64,000 bases of DNA, taken from assembly GCA_016206155.1 (NCBI GenBank), contig JACQSC010000004.1:7450-71449 (forward strand), given 5' to 3'. This document shows, one piece after another, positions 9,877 through 57,487 of this stretch. A program made the position numbers and the translations under genes. The stretch is from Candidatus Uhrbacteria bacterium (GTDB taxonomy: Bacteria > Patescibacteriota > Patescibacteriia > JACQRZ01). The number at the start of each line of letters is the position of its first letter. Position 1 is the stretch's first letter. The notes below the pieces were generated by a model. It made no database searches, was not told the DNA's origin, and worked only from the letters and a program-made list of their open reading frames with translations.

Positions 9877-10434
9877 ATGTACCTCTTCATTCATGCAGCA
9901 GAACGAGAGTATGCGTATCTCCTGCTCGTTGGCAAAAGCATGCCCCGCACCACGATGCGGGGTAAGGAATTGTTAGAATTCCTTACTTTTGGTGACCTCG
10001 TTGTTTATACAAAGTACCTTGTGTATCGGGGAAAGAAATCCCCCGATGTGTTGCGCGGCATCGATGATCTACTGAATCAATTTGGTCTCGCAGCAAAAAG
10101 TCTGAAGGGCATCTGCGTGCTTTCCGGTCCGGGGCAATTTTCGTTTTTGCGAACATCGGTGGTAACTGCCAACACTTTTGGGTGGGCGTTGAACATTCCG
10201 GTTGTTGGTATTTGCGACAAGAAAATGGTGTCTGGTTCCAAGAAAATGGTGTCAGGTACAATTTCCGAAGAAATTGAACCAGACACCATTTTCTCAGACA
10301 CCATTTTCTCGCATAACACCATTTTGTTCATCACGCGCGGTCTCAAAAAGCTCTCGCGCACAAAACGTTTTCGTCCGGTTGTCCCGGAGTACGGCAGAGA
10401 GCCCAACATCACGACGCCGAAGAAAAGAATATAA
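9877..10434 (+). CDS. tsaB: TsaB (YeaZ)-like N-terminal domain protein carrying an in-frame palindromic repeat insertion
   Basis: LSGPGQFSFLRTSVVTANTFGWALNIPVVGI matches the TsaB GPGSFTGLRIG...A..LP..G motif; the C-terminal part is atypical. Confidence 0.5.
   Translation: MYLFIHAAEREYAYLLLVGKSMPRTTMRGKELLEFLTFGDLVVYTKYLVYRGKKSPDVLRGIDDLLNQFGLAAKSLKGICVLSGPGQFSFLRTSVVTANTFGWALNIPVVGICDKKMVSGSKKMVSGTISEEIEPDTIFSDTIFSHNTILFITRGLKKLSRTKRFRPVVPEYGREPNITTPKKRI
10221..10325. repeat. 105-bp nested palindromic element: 2x GAAAATGGTGTC(A/T)GG, central palindrome, then 2.5x inverted copies
   Basis: Direct reading; the same 15-nt termini recur at 14769..14822. Confidence 0.85.
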
Positions 10435-11087: not shown

Positions 11088-12332
11088 GTGGATCTTTTTG
11101 ATTCCCACTTACAGTCCAAAAACCATGCGCCGCTTGCCGATAGGATGCGGCCTACTACGATCGATGAGATTGTGGGGCAGGATCATATCTTGGGGCAAGG
11201 AAAAGTATTGCGTACGCTGATTGAAAAAGATCAACTTCGCTCGATTATCTTCTGGGGTCAGCCCGGGACCGGAAAAACGACTATTGCATCAGTCATTGCG
11301 CGGTCGACCGGTGCGGATTTTGTCGCACTCTCTGCCGTGAACACCGGTGTAAAAGAGGCGCGCGTGGTTATTGAGAAAGCAAAGGATTCATTAAAATTTC
11401 ACCACAAGCGGACCATTCTTTTTATCGACGAGATTCATCGCTTTAGCAAATCACAGCAAGACGCGTTTTTGCCCGCTGTAGAGGACGGCACAATTATTTT
11501 GATAGGCGCGACAACGGAGAATCCTTCGTTTGAGGTGAACTCTGCCTTGCTTTCGCGTTCGCGGGTCTTTGTGCTTAATGCGCTCAACGACGAAGCGCTT
11601 TCTCATATTCTTGATCGGGGACTGAATATGGTGTCTGAAATGGAGTCAGGCGCAGATCCCATTTCACTTGACGAGACAGCGCGCCGCGCACTTATTGATG
11701 CATCTAATGGCGATGCACGCACACTTCTTAACATGCTTGAATATGCTTTACTCTTGATTGGTGATAAAAAAGTAATTGGCTTGCCTGTGGTGCAAGAGGC
11801 AATTCAACAGAGCATGCTGAGATACGATAAAAATGGAGAAGAACATTACAATGTCATATCCGCGTTTATCAAAAGCATGCGCAACTCGGATGCCAATGCG
11901 GCGCTGTATTGGATGGCGCGTATGATTATGGCGGGGGAGGATCCGCTTTTCATTGCGCGGCGCATGGTCGTGTTCGCATCAGAAGATGTGGGACTTGCCG
12001 ATCCCAAGGCAATCATGGTCGCCACTTCTGTTTTTCAGGCAGTGCACGCAATCGGTATGCCGGAGGCGCGTATTCCGCTTGCGCACTGCGCGGTGTATTT
12101 GTCAAAGGCGCCACGAAATAACTCCGCATACATGGGTATTGAAGCGGCGCTCTCTGACGCGAAGGAGCACGGCAATCTTCCGGTCCCGCTCCATTTGCGC
12201 AACGCCCCGACAAAGCTGATGAAAGACTTGGACTATGGCAAAGGGTATCAGTATGCGCACGACTTCAAGGAAAAAATAGCAGATATGCAGTGCATGCCCG
12301 ACGAGTTGAAGGACAGGCGATACCTTTTTTGA
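11088..12332 (+). CDS. rarA: replication-associated recombination protein A (MgsA/RarA)
   Basis: AAA+ Walker A GQPGTGKTT, sensor motifs, MgsA C-terminal domain; GTG at 11088 follows the relE stop (the track ORF starts at TTG 11055). Confidence 0.9.
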   Translation: MDLFDSHLQSKNHAPLADRMRPTTIDEIVGQDHILGQGKVLRTLIEKDQLRSIIFWGQPGTGKTTIASVIARSTGADFVALSAVNTGVKEARVVIEKAKDSLKFHHKRTILFIDEIHRFSKSQQDAFLPAVEDGTIILIGATTENPSFEVNSALLSRSRVFVLNALNDEALSHILDRGLNMVSEMESGADPISLDETARRALIDASNGDARTLLNMLEYALLLIGDKKVIGLPVVQEAIQQSMLRYDKNGEEHYNVISAFIKSMRNSDANAALYWMARMIMAGEDPLFIARRMVVFASEDVGLADPKAIMVATSVFQAVHAIGMPEARIPLAHCAVYLSKAPRNNSAYMGIEAALSDAKEHGNLPVPLHLRNAPTKLMKDLDYGKGYQYAHDFKEKIADMQCMPDELKDRRYLF

Positions 12333-14768: not shown

Positions 14769-14822
14769 GGTGAAAATGGTGTCAGGAATAGTTTCTGCAA
14801 AAACTATTCCTGACACCATTTT
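14769..14822. repeat. 54-bp perfect palindrome with GTGAAAATGGTGTCAGG termini (second copy of the 10221 element family); likely intergenic hairpin or terminator
   Basis: 25-bp arms, 4-nt loop, directly after the ftsL stop. Confidence 0.85.
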
Positions 14823-14913
14823 CACTAGGAGAGAAGTGTAATCCGCATGGGGCGCGACACGTCTCGCGAGAACAACCAGCGACTTTTCTGCGCGCTGGTT
14901 GTTTTTGATTTGA

Positions 14914-24061: not shown

Positions 24062-24535
24062 TCACTTCTTTCGGATGATAAAAAAGAGGTCGATATAATC
24101 GCGCGCGCGCGCTTTGAGGACAATGGTATGAACCTTATCAACCGCAATGTCATAGATGCTCTCTATTTCAAGATTTCCAAACAAAACACCCTTCTCAATT
24201 CTTTGAAAGGGATAGTAGTTAAAGTCAACTTTTAACACTTCCCCGTCGTTGAAATGTAAAAAAAATGAATGGAGACCAAGAAAACGCTTTGTTTCAATCG
24301 AGGCGATTGAAAGCTTGGAGGCAGTCCTGCCAAAAAACTCTGAAACGCGTAATGGATTCACCTCACTCTTTTCGGTAAAGAGATTGAGGTCTTCCGAGTC
24401 GCGATGGTGGAGATAAAATTCGGAAAGCGCCGTACCACCTGCGAGATAATACCGCGCGGTAAAATACGGTTCATTGGCAATGTGTTCGAGAACTTCTTTC
24501 TGATGTGGCGTTAGGATCGATGGTGGTTTGGCCAT
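24062..24535 (-). CDS. AbiEii/DUF1814-family nucleotidyltransferase toxin, N-terminal domain only (truncated)
   Basis: YLAGGTALSEFYLHHRDSEDLNLF matches the GGTAL...R.S.DlDl nucleotidyltransferase motif; 157 aa against about 300 expected. Confidence 0.55.
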   Translation of the reverse strand: MAKPPSILTPHQKEVLEHIANEPYFTARYYLAGGTALSEFYLHHRDSEDLNLFTEKSEVNPLRVSEFFGRTASKLSIASIETKRFLGLHSFFLHFNDGEVLKVDFNYYPFQRIEKGVLFGNLEIESIYDIAVDKVHTIVLKARARDYIDLFFIIRKK

Positions 24536-25287: not shown

Positions 25288-25713
25288 ATGGGCTTGTTTT
25301 CAAAAAAATCATCCTCCGCAAAAAATGTTCCGGCGATGCCGCCGTTGTTTACTGATGCGCGACAGGAGGGTCGCCACTGGAGTCTGTTTGACGAGGGACA
25401 GCTGCTTGTCGACATGTATGAGACTGACGACATGATTGTCATCCGCTCATTTGTTGCCGGGGTTGATCCGGATCATATAGAGATTTCGATGCATAACGAT
25501 ATGCTCACCATCCGCGGTACTCGACAGGATATGGAGGAAATTCACGATGATCGATTCTACCACCGCGAATGCCATTGGGGAACTTTTTCCCGCTCGGTCA
25601 TTATTCCAAAAACAATCGATCCGGACCGCATTCGCGCCCTCTTCAAAAATGGTGTTGTTACAATTCTTTTGCCAAAAGCACATCCGAATGAACCATCCGT
25701 CTCCTCATCGTAA
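25288..25713 (+). CDS. Hsp20/alpha-crystallin family small heat shock protein
   Basis: ACD domain pattern (VDMYETDDMIVIRSFVAGV...GVVTILLPK). Confidence 0.9.
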   Translation: MGLFSKKSSSAKNVPAMPPLFTDARQEGRHWSLFDEGQLLVDMYETDDMIVIRSFVAGVDPDHIEISMHNDMLTIRGTRQDMEEIHDDRFYHRECHWGTFSRSVIIPKTIDPDRIRALFKNGVVTILLPKAHPNEPSVSSS

Positions 25714-27619
25714 TAGAAGGGGCGCGCTCATTGCCGCGGCGATGCTCACTCTTGTCTTTATCGGAGGGATTGTTTTTCTTTGGTCATACGATGTGTGGTA
25801 TCAAGGGAAAATCATGCCCGGTGTTATGATGGGCAAGCGAATAGTTGGTTCATATAGCCCAGAATACACCGACGATATGCTCGAAGCGTATAGAGAGCGC
25901 CTCCGCCTCCAGGGCGCAGTATTCTCATTTAAAGGAAAAAACGTAACACTTTATTCAGTTCCCACCACACTCAATGCAGATATTCCAATCCAGACAACGG
26001 ATTACCTTTTTGACATTAACAGCGACGCAACCATTGCATCGCTGATGGCGGTTGGGCGCACCGGCTCGCTCCAACGGCAACACGTTGATCGCATGCGCAG
26101 CGCAATCGCAAAGACCTCAATTGCACCCGTCATCACAATCGACCGACAGCGCGTCATTGATCAACTAAAAAAAGAATTCTCCTTTTTCCATACACCGGCC
26201 ACAAACGCGCGCTTCGCCACTGATGAGAAAGGCGCCATCACAATAACGCCTGAGACTCGCGGCATTGAGTTTGATTACGATAAAGCGCTTGCCTCCCTTG
26301 CCGTTCAACTTTCCTCGCTGGAGCAGCCAACCATTCATCTTGACGAAGGCGCAACACTCCCCGACATCACAACACGGGACCTCGAGAGCGTGCGGAGCGG
26401 TGTCGAGCAGTTGATTGCCGAACCGCTCGAGATTACGTTTGAGAATAAAGAATCCGACCCACCACAAAAGCGCGCGTGGACACTTTCCGGGACACTTTTG
26501 TTGTCATGGGTAAAACCACAGCGGTCATCTGGTGGGCAGGCCGAAATTCAATTTGATCGGGGAGCGATAAGCGACTATCTCAAAGAGAAGATTGCTCCCG
26601 ATGTGCGCGTTGACGTCGTGCATCCTCGATTTGAGATGAAGAATGGCCGTGTTGTCGCATTTGATATTCCGCGTGACGGACGAGAGCTCGACAGCGAGAA
26701 AACAGCTGATGTGATTAGTGCATCGCTGACCGATCGACGTATTTCCGCTCAGATTGTTGTTCGCACAATCCAGTCCCCGTTTCGCCAGAGTGCGGACTCC
26801 GAGCCGGTCATTAAGGAGCTCCTCTCCCGCGCGGAAACAGACTTTTCAGGAAGTTCTAAAAATAGAGTGGCTAACATTGCGCGCGGCGCCGAGCTTATCA
26901 ATGGAATTCTTCTCGCGCCCGGCGAAGAATTCTCAACGAACAAAGCCTTGGGGGATGTTGATGCCGCGCACGGATTTTTTCCCGGATTGGTCATTAAGGG
27001 AACGGAGACCGTGCCGGAATACGGAGGCGGCTTGTGCCAGGTTTCAACAACACTTTTCCGCGCCGTGGCATTTGCCGGACTCGAGGTGCGTGAACGCAGG
27101 AATCACTCATACCGCGTATCATTCTATGAGCCACCCGTAGGGTTTGACGCAACGATTTATGGCACGTCGCCTGACTTTCGATTCAAGAATGATACCCCTT
27201 CGCATCTTCTCATCCAAGCACGAACCGTGGGCAACAAAATGATCGTTGAGTTCTGGGGGAGCAAAGATGGCAGAACGGTTGAAGTGGATACTCCGCGTGT
27301 CTTTAACATAAAAAAAGCCGGCCCGCCGAAACTCATTGAAACCGACGAGCTTGCGCCCGGTGAAAAAAATTGCACAGAAAAAGCACATAACGGCGCCGAT
27401 GCGGTGTTTGAGCGCCGCATTACGTACGCCGACGGAACCACAAAAAAAGAAACCTATAAAAGCCACTATGTTGTGTGGCCGGCGGTCTGCCTGATTGGAA
27501 AAGCAAAGGAAGATCCACCTCCACCTGATTCGAGTGCGCAAGAGAATACATCATCATCCGCTCAAGCTATTTTTTCGGACAGCCAAAAACAAGAATCGGC
27601 GCCAACGCAAGCACCGTGA
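25688..27619 (+). CDS. VanW family protein (membrane-anchored, with N-terminal peptidoglycan-binding-like region)
   Basis: GGGLCQVSTTLFRAVAFAGL...RNHSYRVSFYEPPVGFDATIY VanW core; TM after MNHPSPHRNRRG. Confidence 0.8.
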   Translation: MNHPSPHRNRRGALIAAAMLTLVFIGGIVFLWSYDVWYQGKIMPGVMMGKRIVGSYSPEYTDDMLEAYRERLRLQGAVFSFKGKNVTLYSVPTTLNADIPIQTTDYLFDINSDATIASLMAVGRTGSLQRQHVDRMRSAIAKTSIAPVITIDRQRVIDQLKKEFSFFHTPATNARFATDEKGAITITPETRGIEFDYDKALASLAVQLSSLEQPTIHLDEGATLPDITTRDLESVRSGVEQLIAEPLEITFENKESDPPQKRAWTLSGTLLLSWVKPQRSSGGQAEIQFDRGAISDYLKEKIAPDVRVDVVHPRFEMKNGRVVAFDIPRDGRELDSEKTADVISASLTDRRISAQIVVRTIQSPFRQSADSEPVIKELLSRAETDFSGSSKNRVANIARGAELINGILLAPGEEFSTNKALGDVDAAHGFFPGLVIKGTETVPEYGGGLCQVSTTLFRAVAFAGLEVRERRNHSYRVSFYEPPVGFDATIYGTSPDFRFKNDTPSHLLIQARTVGNKMIVEFWGSKDGRTVEVDTPRVFNIKKAGPPKLIETDELAPGEKNCTEKAHNGADAVFERRITYADGTTKKETYKSHYVVWPAVCLIGKAKEDPPPPDSSAQENTSSSAQAIFSDSQKQESAPTQAP

Positions 27620-27623
27620 AATT

Positions 27624-27656
27624 AAAAAAACGGCTTTGTGGCCGTTTCTTTAATTT
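27624..27656. terminator. putative terminator after the vanW-like gene
   Basis: aaaaacggc-tttgtg-gccgttt stem followed by a T-rich run. Confidence 0.5.
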
Positions 27657-28075
27657 CAGACAGAAACCTGCAGACAAGAAAATGTACTATTCGCATATTC
27701 GAGCCAAAGGCCCAAATGACGGATACCACATCCCCATGCTTGTCGTGTCTGCAGAGTTCTGTCTGAAACTGTCTGTAAAGAACGCACATGTAACGTGTAG
27801 CCGACAGTCTACCACAGCCACGGATCTTGTCAAGAGTGGTAGGTGTCCCATTTTAGTGTTCACGTCAATTTTCCTTATGGTTAAAGAAAAATGCCTCTTT
27901 CTATTCATCAGTTCAATAAGCAAGTGCACCACTTAGGGGTTCGATGTTTCCGCGGTACACTCCGTGGATATGGCATACACACACCATTCCCAAGACGAGC
28001 GCGAGAACGCTCAATCGCGTCAGCGCTTCCGGAACCCATCGCTCCGTATAACGCACCGAAGGAAAAACCAAAAAT

Positions 28076-31532: not shown

Positions 31533-31883
31533 CTATGTATCGTTATTCTTTTTTAGAAGCGCGATCTCGCGCACAAGCGTTGTAATCTCTCCGTCAATTT
31601 TCTCAAGTTTTGCAACCATGCGGAAGAGAAGATAGAAAATTACGACGATTGAGAGGTAGAACACCGCATCAGCCCCGCGCGTCACTTGCAGGAATGCCGC
31701 CAAGTAATCCGTCAAGTTCGGTTGCCAAATAAGGAAGATGACAGCGATCCAAAACAGCGACCACACTAAAATGGTTTTACCGTGCACTTCCTTCTTCTGA
31801 AACTTTGAAAGGGCCTTCCCGATGACGAGGACGCTAAAGAGCGTGACGAGAATCTGAATGGTCATGTGAGCAATTTTTTCCAA
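31533..31883 (-). CDS. DUF2304 family membrane protein
   Basis: Two TM helices followed by a C-terminal coiled coil; typical partner of GT2 DPM1-like enzymes. Confidence 0.65.
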   Translation of the reverse strand: MEKIAHMTIQILVTLFSVLVIGKALSKFQKKEVHGKTILVWSLFWIAVIFLIWQPNLTDYLAAFLQVTRGADAVFYLSIVVIFYLLFRMVAKLEKIDGEITTLVREIALLKKNNDT

Positions 31884-32536
31884 ATCATTTTTAAGCCGAT
31901 TGCGATGGCATTTACAGATCGTTGCCCCTTTTGCCGCGAGTAATCGGTATAGGTAATTGTAACAGGAACTTCAACGTATCGCAATTTCAAACGGCGGATT
32001 TCATCAATCAATTCTGATGCGTAGGCAAATCGATCTTCCGTGAGTACGATTCGCTCCGTAGCGACGCGAGAAAACGCCCGCATGCCATTATGCGCATCGG
32101 TCAGGCGGATACCGCTCATCCACCAGGTAAAAAATGTTCCAAGCTTGAGGAGTACTTTGCGCGTATTTGAAATATTGGTAATTGAATCTTGAAGAAAGCG
32201 GGATCCGAGCACCACATCGGCCTCTCCGCGCTCAATCGGCGCAATGAGCGCGGGTATATCTTTCGCGTGATGTTGTCCGTCAGCGTCAAAGTGAACAATG
32301 ACATCACCGCCGTGCGCGAGCGCATACTCGGTGCCAGTTCGTATAGCGGCGCCCTTGCCGCGGTTAATAATGTGCCGAAGAACGACCGCGCCATGAGCGC
32401 GTGCGATCTCACCGGTATGATCACGCGAACAATCGTCTACAACGACGATAGTGGAGGTTACCGTTTTTACATCATTAATCACAGCGCCAATTGTCTGCTC
32501 CTCATTATATGCTGCAATAAATACCCAGATATTCAT
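31862..32536 (-). CDS. family 2 glycosyltransferase (DPM1-like polyprenol-phosphate glycosyltransferase)
   Basis: VFIAAYNEE...VVVDDCSRD...FDADGQH motifs. Confidence 0.85.
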   Translation of the reverse strand: MNIWVFIAAYNEEQTIGAVINDVKTVTSTIVVVDDCSRDHTGEIARAHGAVVLRHIINRGKGAAIRTGTEYALAHGGDVIVHFDADGQHHAKDIPALIAPIERGEADVVLGSRFLQDSITNISNTRKVLLKLGTFFTWWMSGIRLTDAHNGMRAFSRVATERIVLTEDRFAYASELIDEIRRLKLRYVEVPVTITYTDYSRQKGQRSVNAIAIGLKMIWKKLLT

Positions 32537-32618
32537 CCCGTTAGAAGTAGATCGCTTTTATGGCTTAACCCCCTCCCTCCCCTCTTATCCCGCCGAAGTG
32601 ATCGCAACTTCTAACGGG
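32537..32618. promoter_or_regulatory. 12-bp inverted repeat (CCCGTTAGAAGT / ACTTCTAACGGG) enclosing a 58-nt C-rich loop, abutting the GT2 start codon
   Basis: Direct reading; in the minus-strand mRNA the loop is purine-rich (GGAGG-like). Confidence 0.5.
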
Positions 32619-32656
32619 ATTCATAGTACCACAAGCATATCACCTATTTCCAAAAC

Positions 32657-32692: not shown

Positions 32693-32766
32693 TGGAGCGG
32701 GTAAGGGGAGTCGGACCCCTCGCTTCTCGTTGGCAACGAGATATATTACCGCTATACGATACCCGC
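32693..32766 (-). tRNA. tRNA-Gly (anticodon GCC)
   Basis: Manual fold of the reverse complement: acceptor GCGGGTA/TACCCGC, anticodon loop TTGCCAA, T-stem AGGGG/CCCCT with unusual T-loop TCCGACT, encoded CCA. Confidence 0.85.
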
Positions 32767-35435: not shown

Positions 35436-36794
35436 ATGGCATCAATAGGATTTTATGGTGGCGCAGGAGGGGTCACCGGCGCAAACTATCTTCTCGACAC
35501 CGGATCGTGCCGCATCATGGTTGATTGTGGCCTGTTCCAGGGATGGCGGTTTGCCGAGGAAGAAAATCACAAACCGTTTCCTTATGATCCGGCATCTATT
35601 GACGCTGTCTGCGTAACGCACGCGCACGCCGACCACATTGGACGTCTTCCCAAGTTAGTGCGGGAAGGATTTCGAGGAACCATCTACGCAACCGAACCAA
35701 CTGCCGCACTTATGCGGGTCATGCTTGAGGATGCGGTCAAGATCATTCAACACGAATGCGAATGGCATAGTGATACGCCGCTGTATGAAAAAACCGATCT
35801 TGAGAAGACCCTCTCATTGATCAAACCTGTGCGCTACGATGAAAAAATCACGCTTCCGAATTGCGAACTCACCCTTCATGACACCGCGCACATTCTTGGA
35901 TCGGCGATGGTTGAAATGCATGTAAACGAAAAGATTATCGTTTTCACCGGCGATATTGGCAATACTCCTTCCCCGCTTTTGAAAACATTGTATCCACTCA
36001 CGTATTGCGACTACCTTGTGATGGAGTCGGTGTATGGGGATCGATTCCATGAGCCGGCGCAAGAGCGCGTGCTCAAGCTTGAGCGCACTATTGAGGACAC
36101 GGTCACGCGCAAAGGAACGTTGATTATTCCGGCATTTGCGCTGGAGCGCACGCAAGAACTTCTTGCCCAACTCGATGAACTCGTCGAGCACAATCGCATT
36201 CCGCGCGTGCCTGTCTATCTGGACAGTCCCCTCGCGATAGGAGCCACAGAAATTTATCGGCAGTACGCGCACTACTTTAACGACTCAATTCAACAAGAAC
36301 GCAAACACGGCCACGATGGCGATATCTTTCATTTCCCCGGATTGGTCATGACACAATCACGAGAGGAATCCCAAAGAATCAACGCCATACCCTCGCCAAA
36401 AATCATAATGGCGGGAAATCCGCACGGCTATGGCAGCCGCATTATGCACCATTTTGTACGCACGCTCCCCGACCCTGACAGTACCGTACTCTTTGTCGGG
36501 TACGCGCGCGTCAGCAGTTTGGGCCGTAAGCTTATTGACGGCGCAAAAGAGGTCAAACTTTTTAAACAAGTTGTTTCGGTACGATGCCATATTGAGCACA
36601 TCTCAGGATATTCCGCGCACGCCGACCAGGCTCAGCTCACCGCCTTTGTTTCCCGCATCAACAAACCCATCAAGCAAGTTTTTGTGGCTATGGGCGACCC
36701 CGAAGCGGCAAAAACACTTGCGACGATTTTGCAGGATACCGTTGGTGTGCATGCGACTGTACCCAATCTCGGCGATGTGGTAGAATTAGAGTAG
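35436..36794 (+). CDS. MBL-fold metallo-hydrolase with beta-CASP/RNA-metabolising domain
   Basis: HAHADHIGRLP metallo-beta-lactamase motif and beta-CASP layout. Confidence 0.8.
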   Translation: MASIGFYGGAGGVTGANYLLDTGSCRIMVDCGLFQGWRFAEEENHKPFPYDPASIDAVCVTHAHADHIGRLPKLVREGFRGTIYATEPTAALMRVMLEDAVKIIQHECEWHSDTPLYEKTDLEKTLSLIKPVRYDEKITLPNCELTLHDTAHILGSAMVEMHVNEKIIVFTGDIGNTPSPLLKTLYPLTYCDYLVMESVYGDRFHEPAQERVLKLERTIEDTVTRKGTLIIPAFALERTQELLAQLDELVEHNRIPRVPVYLDSPLAIGATEIYRQYAHYFNDSIQQERKHGHDGDIFHFPGLVMTQSREESQRINAIPSPKIIMAGNPHGYGSRIMHHFVRTLPDPDSTVLFVGYARVSSLGRKLIDGAKEVKLFKQVVSVRCHIEHISGYSAHADQAQLTAFVSRINKPIKQVFVAMGDPEAAKTLATILQDTVGVHATVPNLGDVVELE

Positions 36795-36800
36795 CAAGCT

Positions 36801-37439
36801 ATGGCAACAAACAACAAACAGCTTCTTGAACAATCATACCTGAAATACAAAATCTGTGTCTCCGGTTCTGCCGACACTTTCCATTGCCTTCCTGGGGCAT
36901 TGGAAAAAGCAAAAGAATTGGGTCGACAAATCGTCCTTCATAACGGCGTGCTCGTCACCGGCGCAACAACGGGCATCCCCTATTGGGCGGCGATCGGCGC
37001 GAAAGAAGCGGGCGGCATTAGTATTGGTATCTCGCCGGCCGCATCGGAATTGGAGCATGTAAAAAAATATCGTCTTCCTGTCGATTACTTTGATCTTATC
37101 ATGTACACCGGCTTTGAATATTCGGGCCGCAACCTGCTTCTCGTTCGCACGACCGATGCCGTAATTGAAGTGTGCGGACGCATCGGAACGCTCAATGAAT
37201 TCACCATCGCATTTGAAGACAAGAAGCCTGTCGGCGTTCTCGAGGATACCGGCGGGACAACGGCGATGATTCGTGACATCTTAGAAACTGCGCATCGCGG
37301 TGAGGGAAAAATCGCCTACAGCCCAGATCCAAAAGAGTTGATCGACAAAGTCATCGCACTGATTGACAAGGAAAAGGTTGTTCCGATTCCAAAATATGAA
37401 TACGCGAAAGGACGGCCTAATGGAAAGCGCCGCGGATAG
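36801..37439 (+). CDS. TIGR00725/LOG-like (SLOG) Rossmann-fold nucleotide-binding protein
   Basis: KICVSGSA...LVTGATTGIPYWAAIGAKEAGGISIGISP pattern. Confidence 0.6.
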   Translation: MATNNKQLLEQSYLKYKICVSGSADTFHCLPGALEKAKELGRQIVLHNGVLVTGATTGIPYWAAIGAKEAGGISIGISPAASELEHVKKYRLPVDYFDLIMYTGFEYSGRNLLLVRTTDAVIEVCGRIGTLNEFTIAFEDKKPVGVLEDTGGTTAMIRDILETAHRGEGKIAYSPDPKELIDKVIALIDKEKVVPIPKYEYAKGRPNGKRRG

Positions 37440-37444
37440 ATATG

Positions 37445-37579
37445 CCCCGCACTTAAGAACGATTGTTGCCCATTATTCATCCGTACGTTTATGATGCACA
37501 CCACCATTATTATTGATCAAACGATTTTCTCAGTGTACATACGACGAAACACGGGGATGAATCGTTCTTAAGTGCGGGG
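37445..37579. promoter_or_regulatory. perfect 20-bp inverted repeat (CCCCGCACTTAAGAACGATT / AATCGTTCTTAAGTGCGGGG) enclosing 95 nt, ending 1 nt before the rpiB ATG
   Basis: Direct reading; 20/20 complementarity. Confidence 0.8.
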
Positions 37580-38033
37580 TATGCTGTATATTGCCTCTGA
37601 TCATGCAGGATTTGCATTAAAGGAATACCTCAAACGATTTTTGAAAAAACACTCAATTGCCGTTGAGGATATTGGCGCACATAGATACGATAAGGCGGAT
37701 GATTTTCCTCGCTATGCGTTTTCCCTTTCAAAAAAAGTCGCCTCGGATTCCTCACATCGCGGAATTCTTCTTTGTGGAAGCGGGCAAGGCATGTGCATTG
37801 CGGCAAACAAAGTAAGGGGCATACGCGCAGCATCTGTGTGGAACAAAAAAAGCGCTATTGCTTCGCGACACGACGATGACACAAACATTCTTTGCCTTTC
37901 CGGCCGCATGCTCACGAGAAAAGAGACTGAAGAAATTCTTTCATCGTGGCTCTTTACCGGATTCTCCGGTTTGGCACGCTATAAGCGCCGGCTAAACCAA
38001 ATTGCCGCCTACGAAAAAAACTCCCGCGCATAA
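37572..38033 (+). CDS. rpiB: ribose-5-phosphate isomerase B
   Basis: MLYIASDHAGF...LLCGSGQGMCIAANK RpiB/LacAB motifs; the likely start is ATG 37581. Confidence 0.9.
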   Translation: MRGMLYIASDHAGFALKEYLKRFLKKHSIAVEDIGAHRYDKADDFPRYAFSLSKKVASDSSHRGILLCGSGQGMCIAANKVRGIRAASVWNKKSAIASRHDDDTNILCLSGRMLTRKETEEILSSWLFTGFSGLARYKRRLNQIAAYEKNSRA

Positions 38034-38051
38034 CGGGAGTTTTTTCTTTTG

Positions 38052-38234
38052 CTAGACTTCCCACTGATCATCGAGTTTTTGATACTCTTCTGTATTGGAT
38101 TCCATCCCGTGTCGGTCATCCTCGCACTCGCACGACTGAAGAGGCTGGTTATAGTTTGAGCAGCTAGAATCCTGACAAAGTTTTTGTTCGTCCGACACTG
38201 CGCCGCAGGTACCCGGACAGATATAATGCTCCAT
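38052..38234 (-). CDS. hypothetical small Cys-rich acidic protein
   Basis: 60-aa ORF with 7 Cys, convergent with rpiB; weak. Confidence 0.3.
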   Translation of the reverse strand: MEHYICPGTCGAVSDEQKLCQDSSCSNYNQPLQSCECEDDRHGMESNTEEYQKLDDQWEV

Positions 38235-38343
38235 ATACCCATTATTTATTATTTAATACCTATTAGTATAGCACATTTAAAAAAATTAACTCCCTTGCTA
38301 TACTATACTAAACCCTAGACCCTAGCCACTAGACCCTATTTTT

Positions 38344-38976
38344 ATGATCCCCGCAAACCTAAAAAAATACTTCGCGCCATCGGTGCTCGTCTATTCAAAG
38401 AAAGAGGCACAAAAAAAGCTTTCTTTTATCAATGAACATTTCCCTCACAACCATCTTCATGTTGACGCCGCGGACGGGAAATTCGTACCTTCTACATTTT
38501 GGTGTAAACCCCATGATTTCAAAAATCTTCGCATCAAACAATCGTTTGAGGCACACCTCATGACGCTGAACCCCGAACGGCGTGTTGCGGCATGGAAGCG
38601 CGCCGGCGCCGCACGCATCATCTTTCACTATGAAGCAACAAACAATCCTCTGCGTGTCATAGAAACCATTCAAAAACATCATCTTGAGGTCGGGATCGGC
38701 CTGAACCTTGAAACGCCAACAAAACAGATTGAATTGCTTCTTGATCGCCTTGATGCTATACTCTTTATGAGTATTGTTCCGGGATGGAGCGGACAGCCAT
38801 TTCATCCGGAAGTTATTGGAAAAATACGGAATTTTCATAAAAAATACCCTAAAAAATTCATCATCGTAGATGGCGGCGTAAGCACCGGCAATGCGCAAAA
38901 ACTTATTGCCGCCGGCGCTCGACAGTTGGTGTCCACGTCAGCCGTCTACGGATCAGGAAATTATGCCAGAGAATAA
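38344..38976 (+). CDS. rpe: ribulose-phosphate 3-epimerase (divergent)
   Basis: HVDAADGKFVP and SIVPGWSGQPF...VDGGV resemble Rpe H.D.MDG.FVP / M.V.PGFGGQ.F / DGG motifs; adjacent to rpiB and tkt. Confidence 0.75.
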   Translation: MIPANLKKYFAPSVLVYSKKEAQKKLSFINEHFPHNHLHVDAADGKFVPSTFWCKPHDFKNLRIKQSFEAHLMTLNPERRVAAWKRAGAARIIFHYEATNNPLRVIETIQKHHLEVGIGLNLETPTKQIELLLDRLDAILFMSIVPGWSGQPFHPEVIGKIRNFHKKYPKKFIIVDGGVSTGNAQKLIAAGARQLVSTSAVYGSGNYARE

Positions 38977-39838
38977 AAAAACAACCATTCCTCAGTGGCT
39001 CACCGACATCGGCGAATATCTCAATAAACCGCTTCCGCCGCTTCTCGATATTGATCTGTCCCTTCTTTCGAAGCGGGCACCCGCCCTTGTGATTCCTGAC
39101 GGCATCGCAATCTCGGTTATTATTCCGGCGTGGAATGAAGAGGCATACATTGCGCGAACGCTCGATGCGCTCCACCGCCAAACATTTCCGCGCGACCGGT
39201 ATGAGATCGTAGTTGTCGATAATGTCTGCACCGACCGCACCGCCGATCTTGCGCGCGCATATGGCGCTGACAAAGTTGTCTCTGAGCCATGCAAGGGAAC
39301 AAACTTCGCACGCCAGCGCGGTATCGAAGAAAGCACCGCCGACATCATTGCATTTCTGGACGCCGACTGCGTACCGCCTCCTGAATGGCTTGAGAAAATA
39401 TATACAAAGCTGACCGAAAAAAATCATCGCTGTGCGGCGATTGCAGGATCGTATATCTTCCATGTCAATCCGACTGAATCCCTCTTCCTTGCGCAAGAAA
39501 TCTATCGCTGGATTGTTATGCCCACGATGTCCACGCTCTTTGGTCGACTCTTGGGGCGGGGCGGGGTGATTATTGGCGGCAACTTCGCATCGTTCCGCGA
39601 AAACTTCAATAAAATAAACGGCCTTGACACCTCGTTCACTTTTTTTGGCGACGACGCAAGCATTGCACGCAAATTTGGAGAGATCGGCTTTGTTGAGTTT
39701 GATCCCCTCCTCTACGTCCTGACCTCGACGAGACGCTTTGAGCGTGATGGTCTCCTGAAAACAAACTGGGAGTACGCGCGCAATTATTTTAAAGTCATGT
39801 TCGATGATCATTCACGACCAAAAAGTAAGGCGTCTTGA
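38963..39838 (+). CDS. family 2 glycosyltransferase
   Basis: ISVIIPAWNEE...VVVDNVCTDRT...FLDADC motifs; start set at MPENKK. Confidence 0.8.
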   Translation: MPENKKTTIPQWLTDIGEYLNKPLPPLLDIDLSLLSKRAPALVIPDGIAISVIIPAWNEEAYIARTLDALHRQTFPRDRYEIVVVDNVCTDRTADLARAYGADKVVSEPCKGTNFARQRGIEESTADIIAFLDADCVPPPEWLEKIYTKLTEKNHRCAAIAGSYIFHVNPTESLFLAQEIYRWIVMPTMSTLFGRLLGRGGVIIGGNFASFRENFNKINGLDTSFTFFGDDASIARKFGEIGFVEFDPLLYVLTSTRRFERDGLLKTNWEYARNYFKVMFDDHSRPKSKAS

Positions 39839-50351: not shown

Positions 50352-52034
50352 TTAATCGGCGACAGAAAACACTTCATCAACGGACGTAATTCCCTCCAAC
50401 GCGCGCAGGAGACCATCCTGAATCATGGTGACCATGCCATTCTTAACCGCGATATCCTGAATCTGATATTCAGAAGATGATTTTGCCAGTATGAGTTGCT
50501 CAATATCAGGGCTCATGACCATGATCTCATAGATACCGATGCGCCCCTTATACCCAAGGCCATGGCAGGTATCACAGCCTTCTGCCTCAAAAAAAATAAG
50601 ATGTTCCATATCAACCTTTACACCGCTTTTTGGCGAAATGGCGAACAACTCTTTTCTGATACGATCGATTGTTTCCCGCTTTGGTACCGCAGATTTTTTA
50701 CAGCTCTGGCACAGACGCCGCACCAAACGCTGTCCGATAATGGCGTTGAGTGATGGCGCAAGCAAGAACTCTCGAACCCCCATGGCAAGGAATCGCGGAA
50801 CCGCGCCCGCGGCGCTGTTCGTGTGAATCGTTGAGAGTACGAGATGCCCGGTGAGCGCCGCGTTGATCGCGGTGTCAGCCGTTTCCAAATCTCTAATTTC
50901 GCCAACCATAATAATATCGGGATCTTGGCGCAGAATCGATCGGAGGCCTGTTGCAAAAGTGTAGCTTTTTGAGGTATCAATTTGACTTTGATTAATTCCT
51001 CCGAGCTTATATTCAATAGGATCCTCAAGGGTGATAATCTTAATCTCGGGCGTATTGAGATAGTTTAAAATCGCATACAGCGTTGTGGTTTTACCAGATC
51101 CGGTCGGTCCGGTCGTAATAACCATGCCGTTTGGCTTATCAACCTGACTCTTGAGAAGCGCGTTGGCATACGGAGACAGCCCCAAGTCCTCAAAGCTTAA
51201 CCCCGCTGCCGTTGAACGCAGGAGACGCATGACAACGCTTTCCCCATACCCTGTAGGAAGCGTTGATACGCGAACCTCCACCTTGTCATTTTTAAAATGA
51301 ATCGTAAACCGTCCGTCCTGAGGCCGATCAATAATATTAATTTTTAGCCCTGCGGTAAGCTTGACGCGCGAAATGAGCTGCTTCCACAAATCAGGAGAAA
51401 GCTCGGCAACGTCATGAAGAATTCCGTCAATGCGCAGGCGCGCTTTAATATCCTTCTCTTCTGCTTCGATGTGAATATCGGACGAACGCGTCGCAAGCGC
51501 AACGGCAACGAGAATGGTGATAATATCTGTAACATTTTTGTCGGCAAGCCTCTCCTTAAGCGTCCGAATGTCGGCATATTCATCACCGTAAAGCTCAAGG
51601 TCTTTTTCTGAAATTTCTACACCGCTTGTCTCTTCCTTTATATGCGGTATTTGCGCATAGAGCTTCAAGGCGGAATCAAGGCTTTCCTTCGTGATAACGT
51701 ATACCGAAATGGTGCTGTGTGTTTTTTTTTGAAGGTTTTCAAAAAATGCCTTGAGGTCTTCGTTGTACGGATCAAGAACGGCGACGCGCTTCTCCTCAAT
51801 TTCTGAAGAAAAGCACACAACACCCAGAGCGCGCGCGTCCTCCTCAGAAATGAGCTCGAGCGCGTTTGAGGGAATCGGCATACCCACAAGGGAAATGTAT
51901 GGCAAACCGGAAGAATAGGCGAGCATCTGCGCTTCTTGCGCTTTTTGCTTAAGAGCAAGGTGCGCCATCTTCTGCTGGAGCCTCTCCTCGGCGCTAGAAA
52001 ACCCTTGCGCTGACGTGATCGTATCATCAGGCAT
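50352..52034 (-). CDS. pilB: type II/IV secretion system ATPase (GspE/PilB family)
   Basis: T2SSE_N domain, Walker A GPTGSGKTTTLYA, Asp box, His box, Cys4 motif. Confidence 0.9.
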   Translation of the reverse strand: MPDDTITSAQGFSSAEERLQQKMAHLALKQKAQEAQMLAYSSGLPYISLVGMPIPSNALELISEEDARALGVVCFSSEIEEKRVAVLDPYNEDLKAFFENLQKKTHSTISVYVITKESLDSALKLYAQIPHIKEETSGVEISEKDLELYGDEYADIRTLKERLADKNVTDIITILVAVALATRSSDIHIEAEEKDIKARLRIDGILHDVAELSPDLWKQLISRVKLTAGLKINIIDRPQDGRFTIHFKNDKVEVRVSTLPTGYGESVVMRLLRSTAAGLSFEDLGLSPYANALLKSQVDKPNGMVITTGPTGSGKTTTLYAILNYLNTPEIKIITLEDPIEYKLGGINQSQIDTSKSYTFATGLRSILRQDPDIIMVGEIRDLETADTAINAALTGHLVLSTIHTNSAAGAVPRFLAMGVREFLLAPSLNAIIGQRLVRRLCQSCKKSAVPKRETIDRIRKELFAISPKSGVKVDMEHLIFFEAEGCDTCHGLGYKGRIGIYEIMVMSPDIEQLILAKSSSEYQIQDIAVKNGMVTMIQDGLLRALEGITSVDEVFSVAD

Positions 52035-52045
52035 ACCAATACCAA

Positions 52046-52165
52046 AAAGAATGAAGAATCAAGAATTAAGAATTAAGAATTAAGAATTAAGAATTAAGAA
52101 TTAAGAATTAAGAGGACCCATGATATGCCTTGCTTCGTAATTCTTACTTCTTAATTCTTCATGAT
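52046..52165. repeat. (AAGAATT)x7 tandem repeat followed by an inverted partial copy (hairpin-forming), between ftsH and pilB
   Basis: Direct reading. Confidence 0.9.
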
Positions 52166-52198
52166 TGCAATGAATACAAACCATGAGAACAGAGCTTG

Positions 52199-54031
52199 TT
52201 ATTCAGATGATTCGTTCGCCTCTTTTGCAAAGAGTGCATCAAACTCCTCCTTTTCAAGCATTTCCTTCTCTAAGAGTAATTGTACCAGAGATTCAAGCTT
52301 TTCTCTATGGGTATTCAAAATATCTTGAGCTGTGCGCGCCGCCTCTTCTATAAATGCGTTCATCTCCTCATCAATGCGTTCGGCGGTCTTCTCGCTGTAA
52401 TCTCTCTGTTCGGTAATCTCTCGTCCCAAAAATATCATCTCTTCCTTCTCGCCAAACGTGCGCTGTCCAAGCGCGCTCATACCATACTGTGTCACCAGCT
52501 TGCGGGCAATGCGGGTTGCTTTCTTAAGATCATCGCTCGCACCAGTTGTCACGTCGCCAAAAATTGTTTTTTCTGCGGTATATCCGCCAAGAAGCACCGC
52601 GAGTTCCGCCTTAAATTCAGAACGATTCTTGAATATCCTGTCTTCTGTCGGAAGGTTCAACGTGTACCCTGCCGCATGGCCGCGAGAGATGATGGAAATT
52701 TTCTGCACAGGCGGTGCGGCAGGAAGAATATGTGAAACAAGCGCATGGCCACCCTCGTGGTAGGCGGTAATTTTTTTCTCTGCATCAGACATGAGTCGTC
52801 CCTTCCTCTCCGGACCCAAGATAACTTTCTCAATGCTTGAAAGTATGTCGGGCATCGTAATGATGGCGCCATTCTTGCGCGCAACAAGAATCGCCGCCTC
52901 GTTCAAAAGATTGGCAAGATCGGCGCCGGAAAATCCAGGGGTGCGGCTTGCGATACGATTAAAATCTACATCTTGTGCCAGCGGCTTGTTGCGCGCGTGC
53001 ACCTTAAGAATCTCTTCGCGATCCAGAATCATTGGAAGATCAATAATCACCCTGCGATCAAATCTTCCGGGACGCAGAAGCGCGGGATCAAGCACGTCAG
53101 GACGGTTGGTCCCGGCAAGCACAACGACATTATCGGTTGGATCAAACCCATCCATCTCCACAAGAATCTGGTTGAGTGTCTGTTCGCGTTCGTCGTGCGA
53201 TCCGCCAAGACCCGCCCCGCGCTGGCGGCCAATAGCGTCAAGCTCGTCGACAAAAATAATGCACGGAGCATTTTTCTTTGCCTGCGTAAAAAGATCACGA
53301 ACACGCGCGCTCCCGACGCCGACAAACATTTCGATAAATTCAGAACCGGACACGTGAAAGAACGGTACCTCGGCTTCTCCGGCAACAGCTTTTGCGAGCA
53401 GTGTTTTCCCGACTCCCGGCGCACCCATCAACAACACTCCCTTCGGAATCTTTGCGCCAAGATCGTGAAACTTTTTCGGCTGCTTTAAGAACTCAATAAC
53501 CTCTGCAAGCTCCTGCTTTGCCTCTGCCGCACCAGCAACATCGGCAAACGTAATCTTGTTCTTGGTTTCTTTGGGGTCAAATTTTCGCGCGCGGCTTGCG
53601 CCAAATGAGAGAGCGCGCGTATTGGCGCCCTGTACCTGGCGAATCATCAGGAAGACAAAAAAGGCAAGGAGGAGAAAGGGAACAAGGAAAGAAAGAATCG
53701 TGTTAATCCAAAAGTTCTTTGTCTGATCCTCGATCGCCAGCTCTATTTTCCCGGTCTTTTCCGGACTGACATCAAAGTTTTTCAAAAGCGTGCTCAGGGA
53801 TTCGCCGGGCTCCTTGTGGGCAATCTCTTTTTTTCCGTCGGACAGCTCAATTTCCAGCGTCTCGCCTTTGACATCAATTTTTTTCACCTTCTCATCCTTA
53901 ATCTGCGCAATGAGAATCTCAATCCCGACGGTTTCCGGTTTTTGCGGTCCTGCGGTGTAGAGGCTGAAGAACGCTCCGACAGCGATCATCGCGACGAGAA
54001 AAACAATGACGTTTTTTATGATGGGGTTCAC
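52199..54031 (-). CDS. ftsH: ATP-dependent zinc metalloprotease FtsH
   Basis: AAA Walker A/B, SRH, HEGGHAL zinc motif, two N-terminal TM helices. Confidence 0.95.
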
Positions 54032-54059: not shown

Positions 54060-55289
54060 TCAAATTTCCTGGTCGTTTGCCGCCGTTGGTTGTTCGGGAG
54101 CCGGCTCAGCAGTTTCCGTGGGAGTTTTTTCTTCCACTGATTCCTGCGTGTCCGCCGTGGCGGGATTACTGATTCCTGATTCCTCTTTAAACGCTTTGAG
54201 GCTCAATCCAAGACGATGTTCCTCCGGCTCAATGGACACGATACGAAATTCGACCATGTCGCCCTGTGACGCAATGGTTGTGGGATCAACATTCGTTTTC
54301 GTTGAAAGTTCTGACACGTGCGCAAGCCCGTGAATTTCCGGATCCAGCTCGACAAACAAACCGAATGGATTAACTTTTAATACCTTGCCTTTTACGAGCT
54401 GACCGACAGCATAGCGATCCTTCACGTTCTTCCAGGGATCGGGAATAAGATTTTTCATCGAAAGAAATATCTTTGACCCCTCTATTTTAATAATTTGTGC
54501 CTTGATCTTCTGTCCCGAGCGCAGAAACTCTTTTGGATCATCGATGCGTTGCCACGCAATCTCGGAAATATGGACAAGCCCTTCAAGGCCTTGACCGAAC
54601 TCAACAAAGGCGCCGAAATCTGTGATAACAGTTACAACCCCTTCAATATTATCGCTCACCTTGTAGCTAGAGATAACATCTTTCTGGCGCACTTCCCATG
54701 CCGCCTTTTCCGAGACGATGAGCTTCTCTTCTTGCTCATCTGCGTCGATAATTTTTACTTCAAAACTTTCGCCCGTATAAGACTTCAATTTTTCGAGAAT
54801 CTTATTTTTGTCACCACCCTGAATACGCGGATAATGTTCGGGACAGAGTTGAGAAACCGGCATAAAACCGCTTACATTTCCGCACACGACCATGAGGCCA
54901 CCCTTGTTTGCGTCGACGGACTTCACAGTGACAATCTCACCCGATTGGCACAGTTGCCGCAGATGATCCCAGGCCTTTTTATGCCCGGCGCTTCGAAATG
55001 AAAGCTCAAAAAGCCCTCGCTCGTTCTCAAGCTCCAGAACCGTTGCGCTGACTTCATCGCCGAGTTTGAGATTGGAATATTCACCGGATTCATCGACCAG
55101 CTCCATTCCCCGAACAACGCCGGTCGCGACACCGTTGATATCAATCTGCACATCTCCTTTGGAAACTGATAATACCGTTCCGGTAATAATATCGCCGACT
55201 TTCGGAAGCGCGGCGCTGTACTGATCAAGAAGCTCTCTGAACTCTTTTTTACTCTGTTCGTCAGCAAGCTGTTGTGTTGTCGTAGTCAT
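54060..55289 (-). CDS. rpsA: 30S ribosomal protein S1 (four S1 domains)
   Basis: Repeated S1 OB-fold motifs; acidic C-terminus. Confidence 0.9.
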   Translation of the reverse strand: MTTTTQQLADEQSKKEFRELLDQYSAALPKVGDIITGTVLSVSKGDVQIDINGVATGVVRGMELVDESGEYSNLKLGDEVSATVLELENERGLFELSFRSAGHKKAWDHLRQLCQSGEIVTVKSVDANKGGLMVVCGNVSGFMPVSQLCPEHYPRIQGGDKNKILEKLKSYTGESFEVKIIDADEQEEKLIVSEKAAWEVRQKDVISSYKVSDNIEGVVTVITDFGAFVEFGQGLEGLVHISEIAWQRIDDPKEFLRSGQKIKAQIIKIEGSKIFLSMKNLIPDPWKNVKDRYAVGQLVKGKVLKVNPFGLFVELDPEIHGLAHVSELSTKTNVDPTTIASQGDMVEFRIVSIEPEEHRLGLSLKAFKEESGISNPATADTQESVEEKTPTETAEPAPEQPTAANDQEI

Positions 55290-55317: not shown

Positions 55318-55497
55318 TATTGACCTTCGCCTATTGCGTTAACATGAAAAATGTATGATTTTGAGACAGATCCGCTGCTCTGGAACCGCAAAAAACCACA
55401 GTCGTACTATCAGTACGATGAGGATTTTTTGTGGCGAAGAGCAAGGAGCTGGTCAAAATCATAGGCTTTTCGTTAAGGTAATAGGCGAAGGTCAATA
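55318..55497. promoter_or_regulatory. 180-bp element bounded by perfect 18-bp inverted repeats (TATTGACCTTCGCCTATT / AATAGGCGAAGGTCAATA), filling the hppA-rpsA intergenic region (rpsA leader)
   Basis: Direct reading; internal hairpin cgtact-atc-agtacg. Confidence 0.8.
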
Positions 55498-55498
55498 G

Positions 55499-57487
55499 TT
55501 AGCGTACCACGGTAAGCGCTATCAAGAGCGCTACAATGTTAAGAATTTTAATCATAGGATTGATCGCCGGTCCAGCCGTATCCTTGTATGGATCGCCGAC
55601 CGTATCACCGGTCACCGCCGCTTGATGCGCGAGTGATCCTTTTCCGCCAAAGTTTCCTTCTTCAATATATTTTTTTGCATTATCCCAAGCGCCGCCACCA
55701 GATGTCATCGATACGGCAACAAAAATTCCCGTCACGATAGAACCGACAAGAACACCGCCCAGCGCCTCAAACCCAAGGAGCGCCCATATCACCAATGGTG
55801 TTGCGACAGGAATAAGCGCTGGAACGATCATCTTCTGAATTGCGGCGCGCGTCACAATATCAACCGTTCGCCCGTAATCTGGCTTTGCTGCTCCCTCCAT
55901 AATGCCTTTAATTTCTCTAAATTGGCGTCGTACCTCCTCAACAACCTTCCCCGCTGTTGCGCCCACTGCTTCCATTGAAAGCGCACCAAAGTAATAGGGG
56001 AGAAGCCCGCCGATAAAAAGGCCGATGAGAACTTTTGGTTGGTCTATGAGAAATTGAGTTTTTCCGCCAAGCGCGTGCGTGTAGTCGGCAAACAGAACGA
56101 GTGCGGCAAGTGCGGCGGAACCGATCGCATATCCTTTTGTCACTGCTTTTGTGGTGTTGCCAACGGCATCAAGCGGATCGGTAACGTCGCGCACCTCTTT
56201 GGGCAATCCCGCCATCTCGGCAATACCTCCTGCGTTATCGGTAATCGGACCGTATGAATCGATAGCAACAATCATTCCGGCCATCGAGAGCATAGCCATT
56301 GCCGCAACCGCAATACCGTAGAGGCCGCCAAGAGAGAACGCGGCGAGGATACCCGCGCAAATCACGATCACGGGCCATGCTGTTGACTTCATTGAGATTG
56401 CCAGTCCGGTAATAATGTTGGTGGCGTGTCCGGTTTGCGATGCGACAGCGATAGCGCGAACAGGAGAATGCTTTGTCGATGTATAGTATTCGGTAATGGC
56501 AACAAACAATCCCGTCACGGCAATGCCAACGAGCGCGGCAAAGTATACATTGATGGCAGAGACCGACTCAAGCCCTCCCATCATTTTCATCGTAACGGGA
56601 TAGAGAACCAACGCGGAAAGCGCGCCAGAAACGATCAGCCCCTTGTATAACGCCCCCATGATATTGTTTCGCGATCCAAGCCTGATAAAAAAAGCTCCGA
56701 TAATTGAGGTAACGATAGAAAGCGCTCCGATAACCAACGGATACAGCACGGCGGCATCGCGACCGGCGAACGTGTAATACCCCAAAACCATTGTCGCCAC
56801 AGCCGTCACGGCGTATGTTTCAAAAAGATCGGCAGCCATTCCTGCGCAATCGCCAACATTATCGCCAACATTATCGGCAATCACAGCCGGATTGCGCGGA
56901 TCGTCTTCAGGAATTCCCGCTTCCACCTTTCCTACCAGGTCGGCTCCAACATCGGCCGCCTTGGTAAAAATACCGCCGCCAAGCCGCGCAAACACCGAGA
57001 TAAGGCTTCCGCCAAAACCAAGACCGATCAGAGCCTTAATGTCGTGCGTTAGTGCATAGAATCCCGCGACCCCCAACAATCCAAGTCCGACGACAAGCAA
57101 GCCGGTTACCAGCCCCCCTTTTACGGCCATCTCAAGGGCTGGCGCGAATCCGCGTTTTGCCGCCTCTGCGGTGCGGACATTCGCGCGTACCGATACGTTC
57201 ATACCAATATATCCTGCCGCACCCGAGAACGCCGCGCCAATGAGAAAGGCGGCTGCCGTCTTGATGCCAAGAAATAAGGCGATAAGTATTGCAACAATAA
57301 CTGCAACAATGACAATTGTTCGATATTGGCGATTTAAATATGCGGAAGCTCCCGCCTGTATTGCCTGCGCGATAGATTTCATGGTTTCATCACCGGATGG
57401 TTGACGGACAATCCAACGGATCAAAAACGCGCCATAGATAATCGCGGCAATGCTTACAATGATTGAAAAAAGAAGTTCTGGAGACAT
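55499..57487 (-). CDS. hppA: membrane-bound proton/sodium-translocating pyrophosphatase
   Basis: GDNVGDCAG and other H+-PPase signature motifs, multi-TM. Confidence 0.95.

Follow-up and report, generated by a model that had tools for sequence, protein, structure and literature searches.

A perfect inverted repeat one base upstream of rpiB

In a 64,000-nucleotide stretch of DNA from Candidatus Uhrbacteria bacterium (the whole of which is hereafter called the window), a perfect inverted repeat ends one base before the start codon of rpiB, which raises the question of whether this structure is a device controlling rpiB translation or a piece of DNA that was inserted there. An earlier note on this sequence had left two readings side by side: a translational-control or riboswitch-like leader that sequesters the ribosome-binding site, and a 135-bp MITE-like insertion with 20-bp terminal inverted repeats (TIRs). 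The features on which the question turns are as follows.

36801-37439, + strand: SLOG cluster4 (LOG-like) gene (Pfam PF18306, E = 4.8e-34), with an 81% identical orthologue in contig L011
37445-37464, + strand: left terminal inverted repeat, CCCCGCACTTAAGAACGATT, read from the sequence, the repeat search and the mismatch search
37465-37559, + strand: core of 95 nt, 41% GC, with imperfect inner pairing that lengthens the stem
37560-37579, + strand: right terminal inverted repeat, AATCGTTCTTAAGTGCGGGG, spanning -21 to -2 relative to the rpiB ATG
37581-38033, + strand: rpiB (ribose-5-phosphate isomerase B, LacAB_rpiB; Pfam PF02502, E = 1.4e-43), intact, 150 aa

The earlier description of a perfect 20-bp inverted repeat around 95 nt proved correct in its coordinates and its geometry. 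The arms are exact reverse complements, the whole element measures 135 bp from arm to arm (37445-37579), and a single T at 37580 separates it from the rpiB ATG (37581-37583), so that the junction reads ...GGATAGA TATG / CCCCGCACTTAAGAACGATT / 95-nt core / AATCGTTCTTAAGTGCGGGG / TATG CTGTAT.... The repeat had also been said to bracket the SLOG-rpiB intergenic region, and it does take up essentially the whole 141-nt spacer, since the SLOG stop codon ends at 37439; its right arm lies, again as described, over the position expected for the rpiB ribosome-binding site. In the repeat search, arm pairing widened to 40 nt at 80% complementarity (37442-37481 with 37543-37582). At a tolerance of up to 3 mismatches, the window still contained the 20-mer CCCCGCACTTAAGAACGATT at these two sites only, and 100 shuffled sequences produced no match; chance does not explain a perfect 20-bp inverted repeat beside the rpiB ATG.

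RNA folding of 37435-37600, a check that the earlier note had suggested, predicted a strong stem on both strands, with energies of -57.9 kcal/mol on the + strand (z = -5.7) and -62.4 kcal/mol on the - strand (z = -6.4) that were equalled by none of 200 shuffles. The element has a GC content of 0.44 (0.48 for the window), and its core bears no similarity to neighbouring sequence. Its longest open reading frame (ORF) has 26 codons (37491-37571) and lacks a Shine-Dalgarno sequence, and the element is otherwise without coding capacity.

RpiB of the window is identical to NCBI MBI4252987.1 (Candidatus Uhrbacteria bacterium), and genes nearby in the window include those for a beta-CASP RNase, rpe, a split transketolase and an LTD/PKD surface protein, among others, a gene content consistent with a member of the Patescibacteria. 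The rpiB-rpe spacer also contains a cysteine-rich 60-aa ORF (MEHYICPGTCGAVSDEQKLCQDSSCSNYNQ...) at 38052-38234 on the - strand. ORFs of 57-60 aa that resemble it lie on the opposite strand 3' of rpiB in four related contigs (L171, L172, L173 and L177), and no Pfam family was listed for this type of ORF in the Logan gene calls.

The same strain is present in ten Logan contigs (runs SRR12113385-433). Eight same-strain assemblies cross the element fully; in all eight it is fixed, identical and in one orientation. Contigs L006 and L010 stop inside the left arm, and in all 3 of the 10 contigs (L005, L006 and L010) start or stop within about 20 nt of that arm, at 37426, 37455 and 37463. These breaks could reflect poor Illumina coverage of the hairpin or heterogeneity of the population, and their positions do not match a simple branch point between filled and empty sites or between inverted forms.

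The SLOG-rpiB junction is empty in relatives

A protein search with RpiB yielded relatives on contigs L171-L178, whose RpiB proteins are 85, 85, 83, 77, 77, 80, 77 and 71% identical to that of the window, respectively, and which keep the gene order wherever the contig is long enough to tell. All eight of these close-lineage contigs run from the SLOG stop codon through 2 nt directly to the rpiB ATG (GGATAG-nT-ATGCTGTAT), and the 3' end of SLOG in the relatives bears the signals that precede rpiB. Alignment placed one clean 139-nt gap in all relatives at this junction, where they read ...cgcggatag[c/g]tATGctgtat.... Deletion of the element and one TATG from the window sequence left ...GCGGATAGATATGCTGTAT / ...cgcggatagatATGctgtat..., which is colinear with the relatives. 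The extra DNA in the window therefore amounts to 139 bases, made up of the 135-bp element and a second TATG (or, alternatively, 134 bp and TATGC). This sequence comparison shows that DNA was inserted at the SLOG-rpiB junction of one Candidatus Uhrbacteria lineage.

In the GTDB representative closest to the window, L011 (SLOG 81% and RpiB 60% identical), a single nucleotide separates the SLOG stop from the codon that aligns with the rpiB start. That codon is TTA in L011, and the nearest in-frame starts are ATG at 2956 and ATG at 2962, within the 3' end of SLOG; judged from this sequence (2956-3003), either rpiB overlaps SLOG by about 40 nt there or it would use a non-canonical start. Two further contigs, L116 and L032, have a short SLOG-rpiB spacer of about 20-30 nt that contains no hairpin.

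The sequence flanking the element was then read as a target-site duplication.

37441-37444, + strand: left copy, TATG (TATGC if C37445 is counted), from the alignment and the junction listing; it retains the ancestral layout of stop, 2 nt and ATG
37580-37583, + strand: right copy, TATG, which holds the functional rpiB start codon (37581-37583)

TATG(C) thus stands on both sides of the element in the window and only once in the eight relatives (GGATAG-nT-ATGC-TGTAT). A 4-bp flanking repeat by itself would occur by chance about 1 time in 256 and is persuasive only in combination with the empty sites. Two features of the locus follow from this arrangement: the repeat ends one base before the ATG because the rpiB start codon lies within the right-hand TATG copy, and the repeat brackets the whole intergenic region because essentially no intergenic region existed before the insertion.

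One further match at this junction was set aside. A 14-mer, AAGTGCGGGGCATA, at 363-376 of L172 (rpiB coding sequence) is the reverse complement of the left junction TATG+CCCCGCACTT, with an E value of about 0.01 in a small database, and we judged it probably coincidental. The window's own rpiB carries a AAGTGCGGGGCATA site with 2 mismatches at 37810-37823.

The element is probably a MITE-like insertion

Prokaryotic MITEs are smaller than 500-800 bp, have TIRs of about 10-30 bp and target-site duplications of 2-10 bp, encode no transposase and are mostly intergenic (PMC10969869, PMC11602168). The rpiB element is 135 bp long with no transposase ORF (26 codons at most), its TIRs are perfect over 20 bp where at least 10-15 bp are expected, its duplication of TATG or TATGC falls within the 2-10-bp range, and presence in the window is matched by empty sites in L171-L178 (2 nt) and L011 (1 nt). 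From the TIRs, the target-site duplication, the empty site, the absence of coding capacity and the lower GC content, we therefore conclude that the element is a MITE-like non-autonomous DNA transposon, of which a single copy is known from the approximately 64 kb of the source genome searched, and we give this reading a probability of roughly 0.8. The MITE-like alternative of the earlier note is in this way supported by the empty sites in relatives and the flanking TATG(C) duplication.

The earlier note had also looked to additional copies with target-site duplications as the mark of a MITE, and here the searches found no second copy. None was present within the 64-kb window (up to 3 mismatches; blastn-short) or among about 180 related loci that were fetched, the exact 20-mer was absent from the GTDB species representatives, a 16-mer of the arm was absent from IMG/VR, and the element gave zero blastn hits in PLSDB plasmids and GenBank phages. 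Window ORFs of at least 150 aa yielded no transposase or recombinase domain.

From the combined TIR and duplication signature we infer a transposase-mediated mechanism, which would have proceeded as follows. The ancestral junction would have consisted of the SLOG stop (TAG), 2 nt and the rpiB ATG, and a transposase supplied in trans would have inserted the 135-bp element at this junction of a tightly coupled gene pair. A staggered cut and its repair would have doubled the target TATG (or TATGC), leaving one copy, with the old stop-ATG arrangement, at the left end and the other at the right end, where it supplies the rpiB start codon. Gene boundaries in a genome nearly free of noncoding DNA are probably the sole sites where such insertions survive.

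Consequences of the insertion for the rpiB start

An rpiB start 2 nt past the SLOG stop, as in the relatives, is typical of translational coupling. In the window, the signals of the old coupling now lead into a mini-ORF, which begins at the ancestral rpiB start position and continues into the left arm, and rpiB lies 139 nt farther on, behind the stem. Two features bear on how rpiB might be reached.

37442-37456, + strand: mini-ORF of 4 codons, ATG CCC CGC ACT TAA (MPRT*), read from the sequence
37466-37495, + strand: weak sigma-70-like promoter match, TTGCCC-18-TATGAT, pointing toward rpiB, with 9 of 12 positions in agreement

Six sigma-70-like matches occur in 1.7 kb where 2.3 are expected, so the match TTGCCC-18-TATGAT is weak evidence of a promoter. 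The accessibility of the rpiB start was evaluated as an opening energy, the predicted cost to unfold positions -15 to +12 around the rpiB ATG.

Window, read-through transcript: 28.9 kcal/mol (predicted)
Reconstructed empty site: 8.6 kcal/mol (predicted)
Six relatives: 10.2-15.6 kcal/mol (predicted)
Window with 37430-37468 kept single-stranded, to mimic a ribosome that terminates on SLOG or on the mini-ORF: 9.6 kcal/mol (predicted)
Window, transcript from 37502, a start assumed 3' of the weak match TTGCCC-18-TATGAT: 10.5 kcal/mol (predicted)

In this model, read-through mRNA from the upstream genes would fold the arms into a stem of at least 20 bp and bury the rpiB initiation region. Presumably rpiB is still expressed, because the gene is intact. 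It would be translated while ribosomes that complete SLOG and go on to the 4-codon mini-ORF keep the left arm open, and the other route would be provided by transcripts that begin inside the element; we consider ribosome-mediated unzipping, an internal start, or both the most likely routes to rpiB expression. Any regulatory effect of the hairpin would be a by-product of the insertion. A more elaborate version, in which the insertion has been co-opted as a translational-coupling switch such that translation of MPRT* would unzip the left arm and free the rpiB start from its pairing with the right arm's partner strand, we consider rather unlikely.

Alternative explanations of the repeat

The alternative that survives best accepts a real insertion and dispenses with the transposase: a fold-back or template-switch product, or a captured palindromic fragment, would have come to lie beside a short repeat by accident and would persist as a neutral or mildly useful hairpin, for instance as an RNase III processing or mRNA-stability site. 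The single copy and the lack of a partner transposase in our searches agree with such an origin, as does a heptamer hairpin without TIRs at 52035-52198, which indicates that hairpin spacers can arise in this genome by other routes. However, perfect 20-bp termini that abut an exact 4-5-bp duplication are the expected product of staggered cleavage by a transposase, and the core is unlike the neighbouring sequence, which leaves no template for fold-back. We therefore hold this origin to be improbable relative to MITE-like transposition.

Far less probable is the leader of the earlier note, an evolved cis-regulatory element (riboswitch-like or a translational attenuator) that would sequester the rpiB ribosome-binding site upon a signal. 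It would account for the highly stable stem over positions -21 to -2 and for a predicted opening energy of about 29 kcal/mol. The earlier note had named absence of the structure from all relatives as what would speak against it, and the structure is indeed missing from all relatives examined, including all nine of the closest lineages (spacer of 2 nt or less), which leaves no homologue for covariation. Rfam 15 gave no match over the element even at E <= 5 in a search of 36000-39000, and at gathering thresholds the whole window yielded 3 tRNAs only. Moreover, a perfect 20-bp stem with a flanking direct repeat is unlike ligand-sensing leaders. As an evolved or conserved device, then, the leader does not stand. 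The fold energy upstream of rpiB is also not extreme among rpiB loci (-65.2 in the window, against a mean of -48.9 and an sd of 12.3 in 150 distant loci). The strongest hairpins before rpiB among the distant loci, in L093 and L134, were examined as candidate counterparts and rejected as unrelated; they follow the gap gene and leave the ribosome-binding site free.

It is likewise very doubtful that the locus is an inverton, in which the 20-bp repeats would be invertase sites and the 95-nt core a promoter driving rpiB in one orientation: inverted repeats around a short segment immediately 5' of a gene, weak promoter-like matches on both core strands and the three Logan contig ends near the left arm would suit it, but the eight spanning assemblies share one orientation with no flipped core (evidence at the assembly level), the broken contig L006 continues unbroken through the right arm, no recombinase domain occurs among the ORFs of at least 150 aa in the 64-kb window, and inversion leaves the transposition signatures, the TATG duplication and the empty site, unexplained. 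Three further candidates were rejected outright: an intrinsic terminator (no U-tract follows either arm on either strand, and the scan found only 38015-38045, downstream of rpiB), an integron attC site (no RYYYAAC/GTTRRRY core sites at the ends, compared by eye with the consensus; attC recombination yields no duplication) and a PATE of the IS200/IS605 type (such elements are without TIRs and duplications, unlike the rpiB element).

Other inserts and repeats in the window

Several other spacers in the window were found to hold inserted or repeated DNA. Between the genes for H+-PPase (55499-57487) and ribosomal protein S1 (54060-55289) lies an insertion of 176 bp at 55320-55495 (- strand), with TIRs of about 24 nt (TTGACCTTCGCCTATT...), TA/TA flanks and an inner terminator-like hairpin. 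This spacer measures 209 nt in the window and 29-31 nt in the relatives L179 and L180, which are without the insertion; from its absence there it follows that the genome took up such elements before. An 82-bp element at 32543-32624 (- strand), between tRNA-Gly (32693-32766) and a GT2 gene (31862-32536), has 12-bp TIRs (CCCGTTAGAAGT) and a 6-bp direct repeat, ATGAAT (ATTCAT at 32537-32542 and 32625-32630). Its right ATGAAT copy forms the first two GT2 codons and its left copy opens a 19-codon ORF. The relative L181 has a 455-aa gene upstream of GT2 instead, which makes 32543-32624 a candidate insertion without a clean empty site. That the duplication carries a start codon in both this element and the rpiB element hints at a recurrent pattern. 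In pairwise local alignment, the rpiB element, 32543-32624 and 55320-55495 scored no better than shuffles and are thus unrelated in sequence.

The spacer between the FtsH (52199-54031) and T2SS ATPase (50352-52034) genes, at 52035-52198 (- strand), measures 164 nt in the window and 14 nt in L179 and L180. This added length consists of an (AAGAATT)n heptamer array with an imperfect complementary arm that forms a hairpin of about 100 nt, with no TIR or duplication signature evident at 52035-52198. Elsewhere, a 29-nt imperfect inverted repeat (86%) encloses 57 nt at 27654-27768, right after the terminator-like hairpin of a VanW-domain gene (25547-27619), with no obvious flanking duplication. The 15-mer GAAAATGGTGTC[A/T]GG has 6 sites, at 10221-10308 and 14772-14823 (7 with a 2-mismatch site at 11624), where 0.26 are expected; its copies form inverted pairs, including a near-perfect 56-nt palindrome at 14770-14825, and its first cluster falls within a mechanical ORF at 9877-10434. 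These copies may represent a REP-like repeat or a family of protein-binding motifs. An ORF at 24062-24535 (- strand) matched an AbiEii nucleotidyltransferase toxin (type IV toxin-antitoxin) at E = 6e-13 over a partial profile, and its sequence suggests that it may be a truncated defence or toxin-antitoxin gene.

Comparison with known small mobile elements

Structurally, the rpiB element resembles an ordinary prokaryotic MITE: the likeness extends to its length of 135 bp, its 20-bp TIRs, its 4-5-bp duplication, its noncoding content, its lower GC, its intergenic position and its presence or absence between related genomes. It differs from known prokaryotic MITEs in being single copy so far, in that no cognate insertion sequence was identified in the window, and in its host, a member of the Patescibacteria (Uhrbacteria), for which a narrow full-text search found no paper describing MITEs.

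Correia elements (CREE/NEMIS) of Neisseria are hairpin TIR elements of about 100-150 bp that lie by gene starts and are co-transcribed with their neighbours, and their TIR stem is a substrate of RNase III, while their ends can create promoters, such that expression of the adjacent gene is altered (PMC2649163, PMC10969869). By analogy, Correia elements together with repeats of the ERIC/RUP type could offer the best functional comparison for the rpiB element. However, the duplication left by Correia elements is TA, their TIRs span 26 bp and differ in sequence, they number in the hundreds of copies, and no sequence relationship between them and the rpiB element was detected. ERIC/YPAL, RUP and RPE, of enterobacteria, pneumococci and Rickettsia, are imperfectly palindromic, measure about 100-150 bp, lie in frame or where genes meet, are transcribed within mRNAs and affect mRNA stability (PMC2229807, PMC3049150, PMC10969869). 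They differ from the rpiB element in sequence and in forming multi-copy families. None of them is known to leave a start codon a single base away from a perfect 20-bp stem. The rpiB element also fits the 4-5-bp duplication and CC-initiated ends of IS1380-like families, a resemblance that serves as a lead only; in contrast to IS1380, no transposase gene accompanies the rpiB element in the window.

Implications

These observations indicate that the gene-dense, tiny genome of an uncultured Uhrbacteria (Patescibacteria) recently gained small mobile elements, bounded by TIRs, precisely where genes meet, and that in one case the target duplication regenerates the start codon of rpiB, an essential gene of the pentose-phosphate pathway. 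The one filled and eight empty sites form a clean before-and-after pair with which to study the tolerance of a compact operon for a start codon covered by a 20-bp stem. They also advise caution in annotation: such hairpins in CPR genomes should be considered insertions first and riboswitches second. If the coupling switch described above were real, RpiB synthesis would still depend on translation of the gene upstream, despite the 139 nt of DNA inserted between them, and the locus would represent a naturally occurring case in which a MITE has brought a gene of a minimal CPR genome under ribosome-dependent control.
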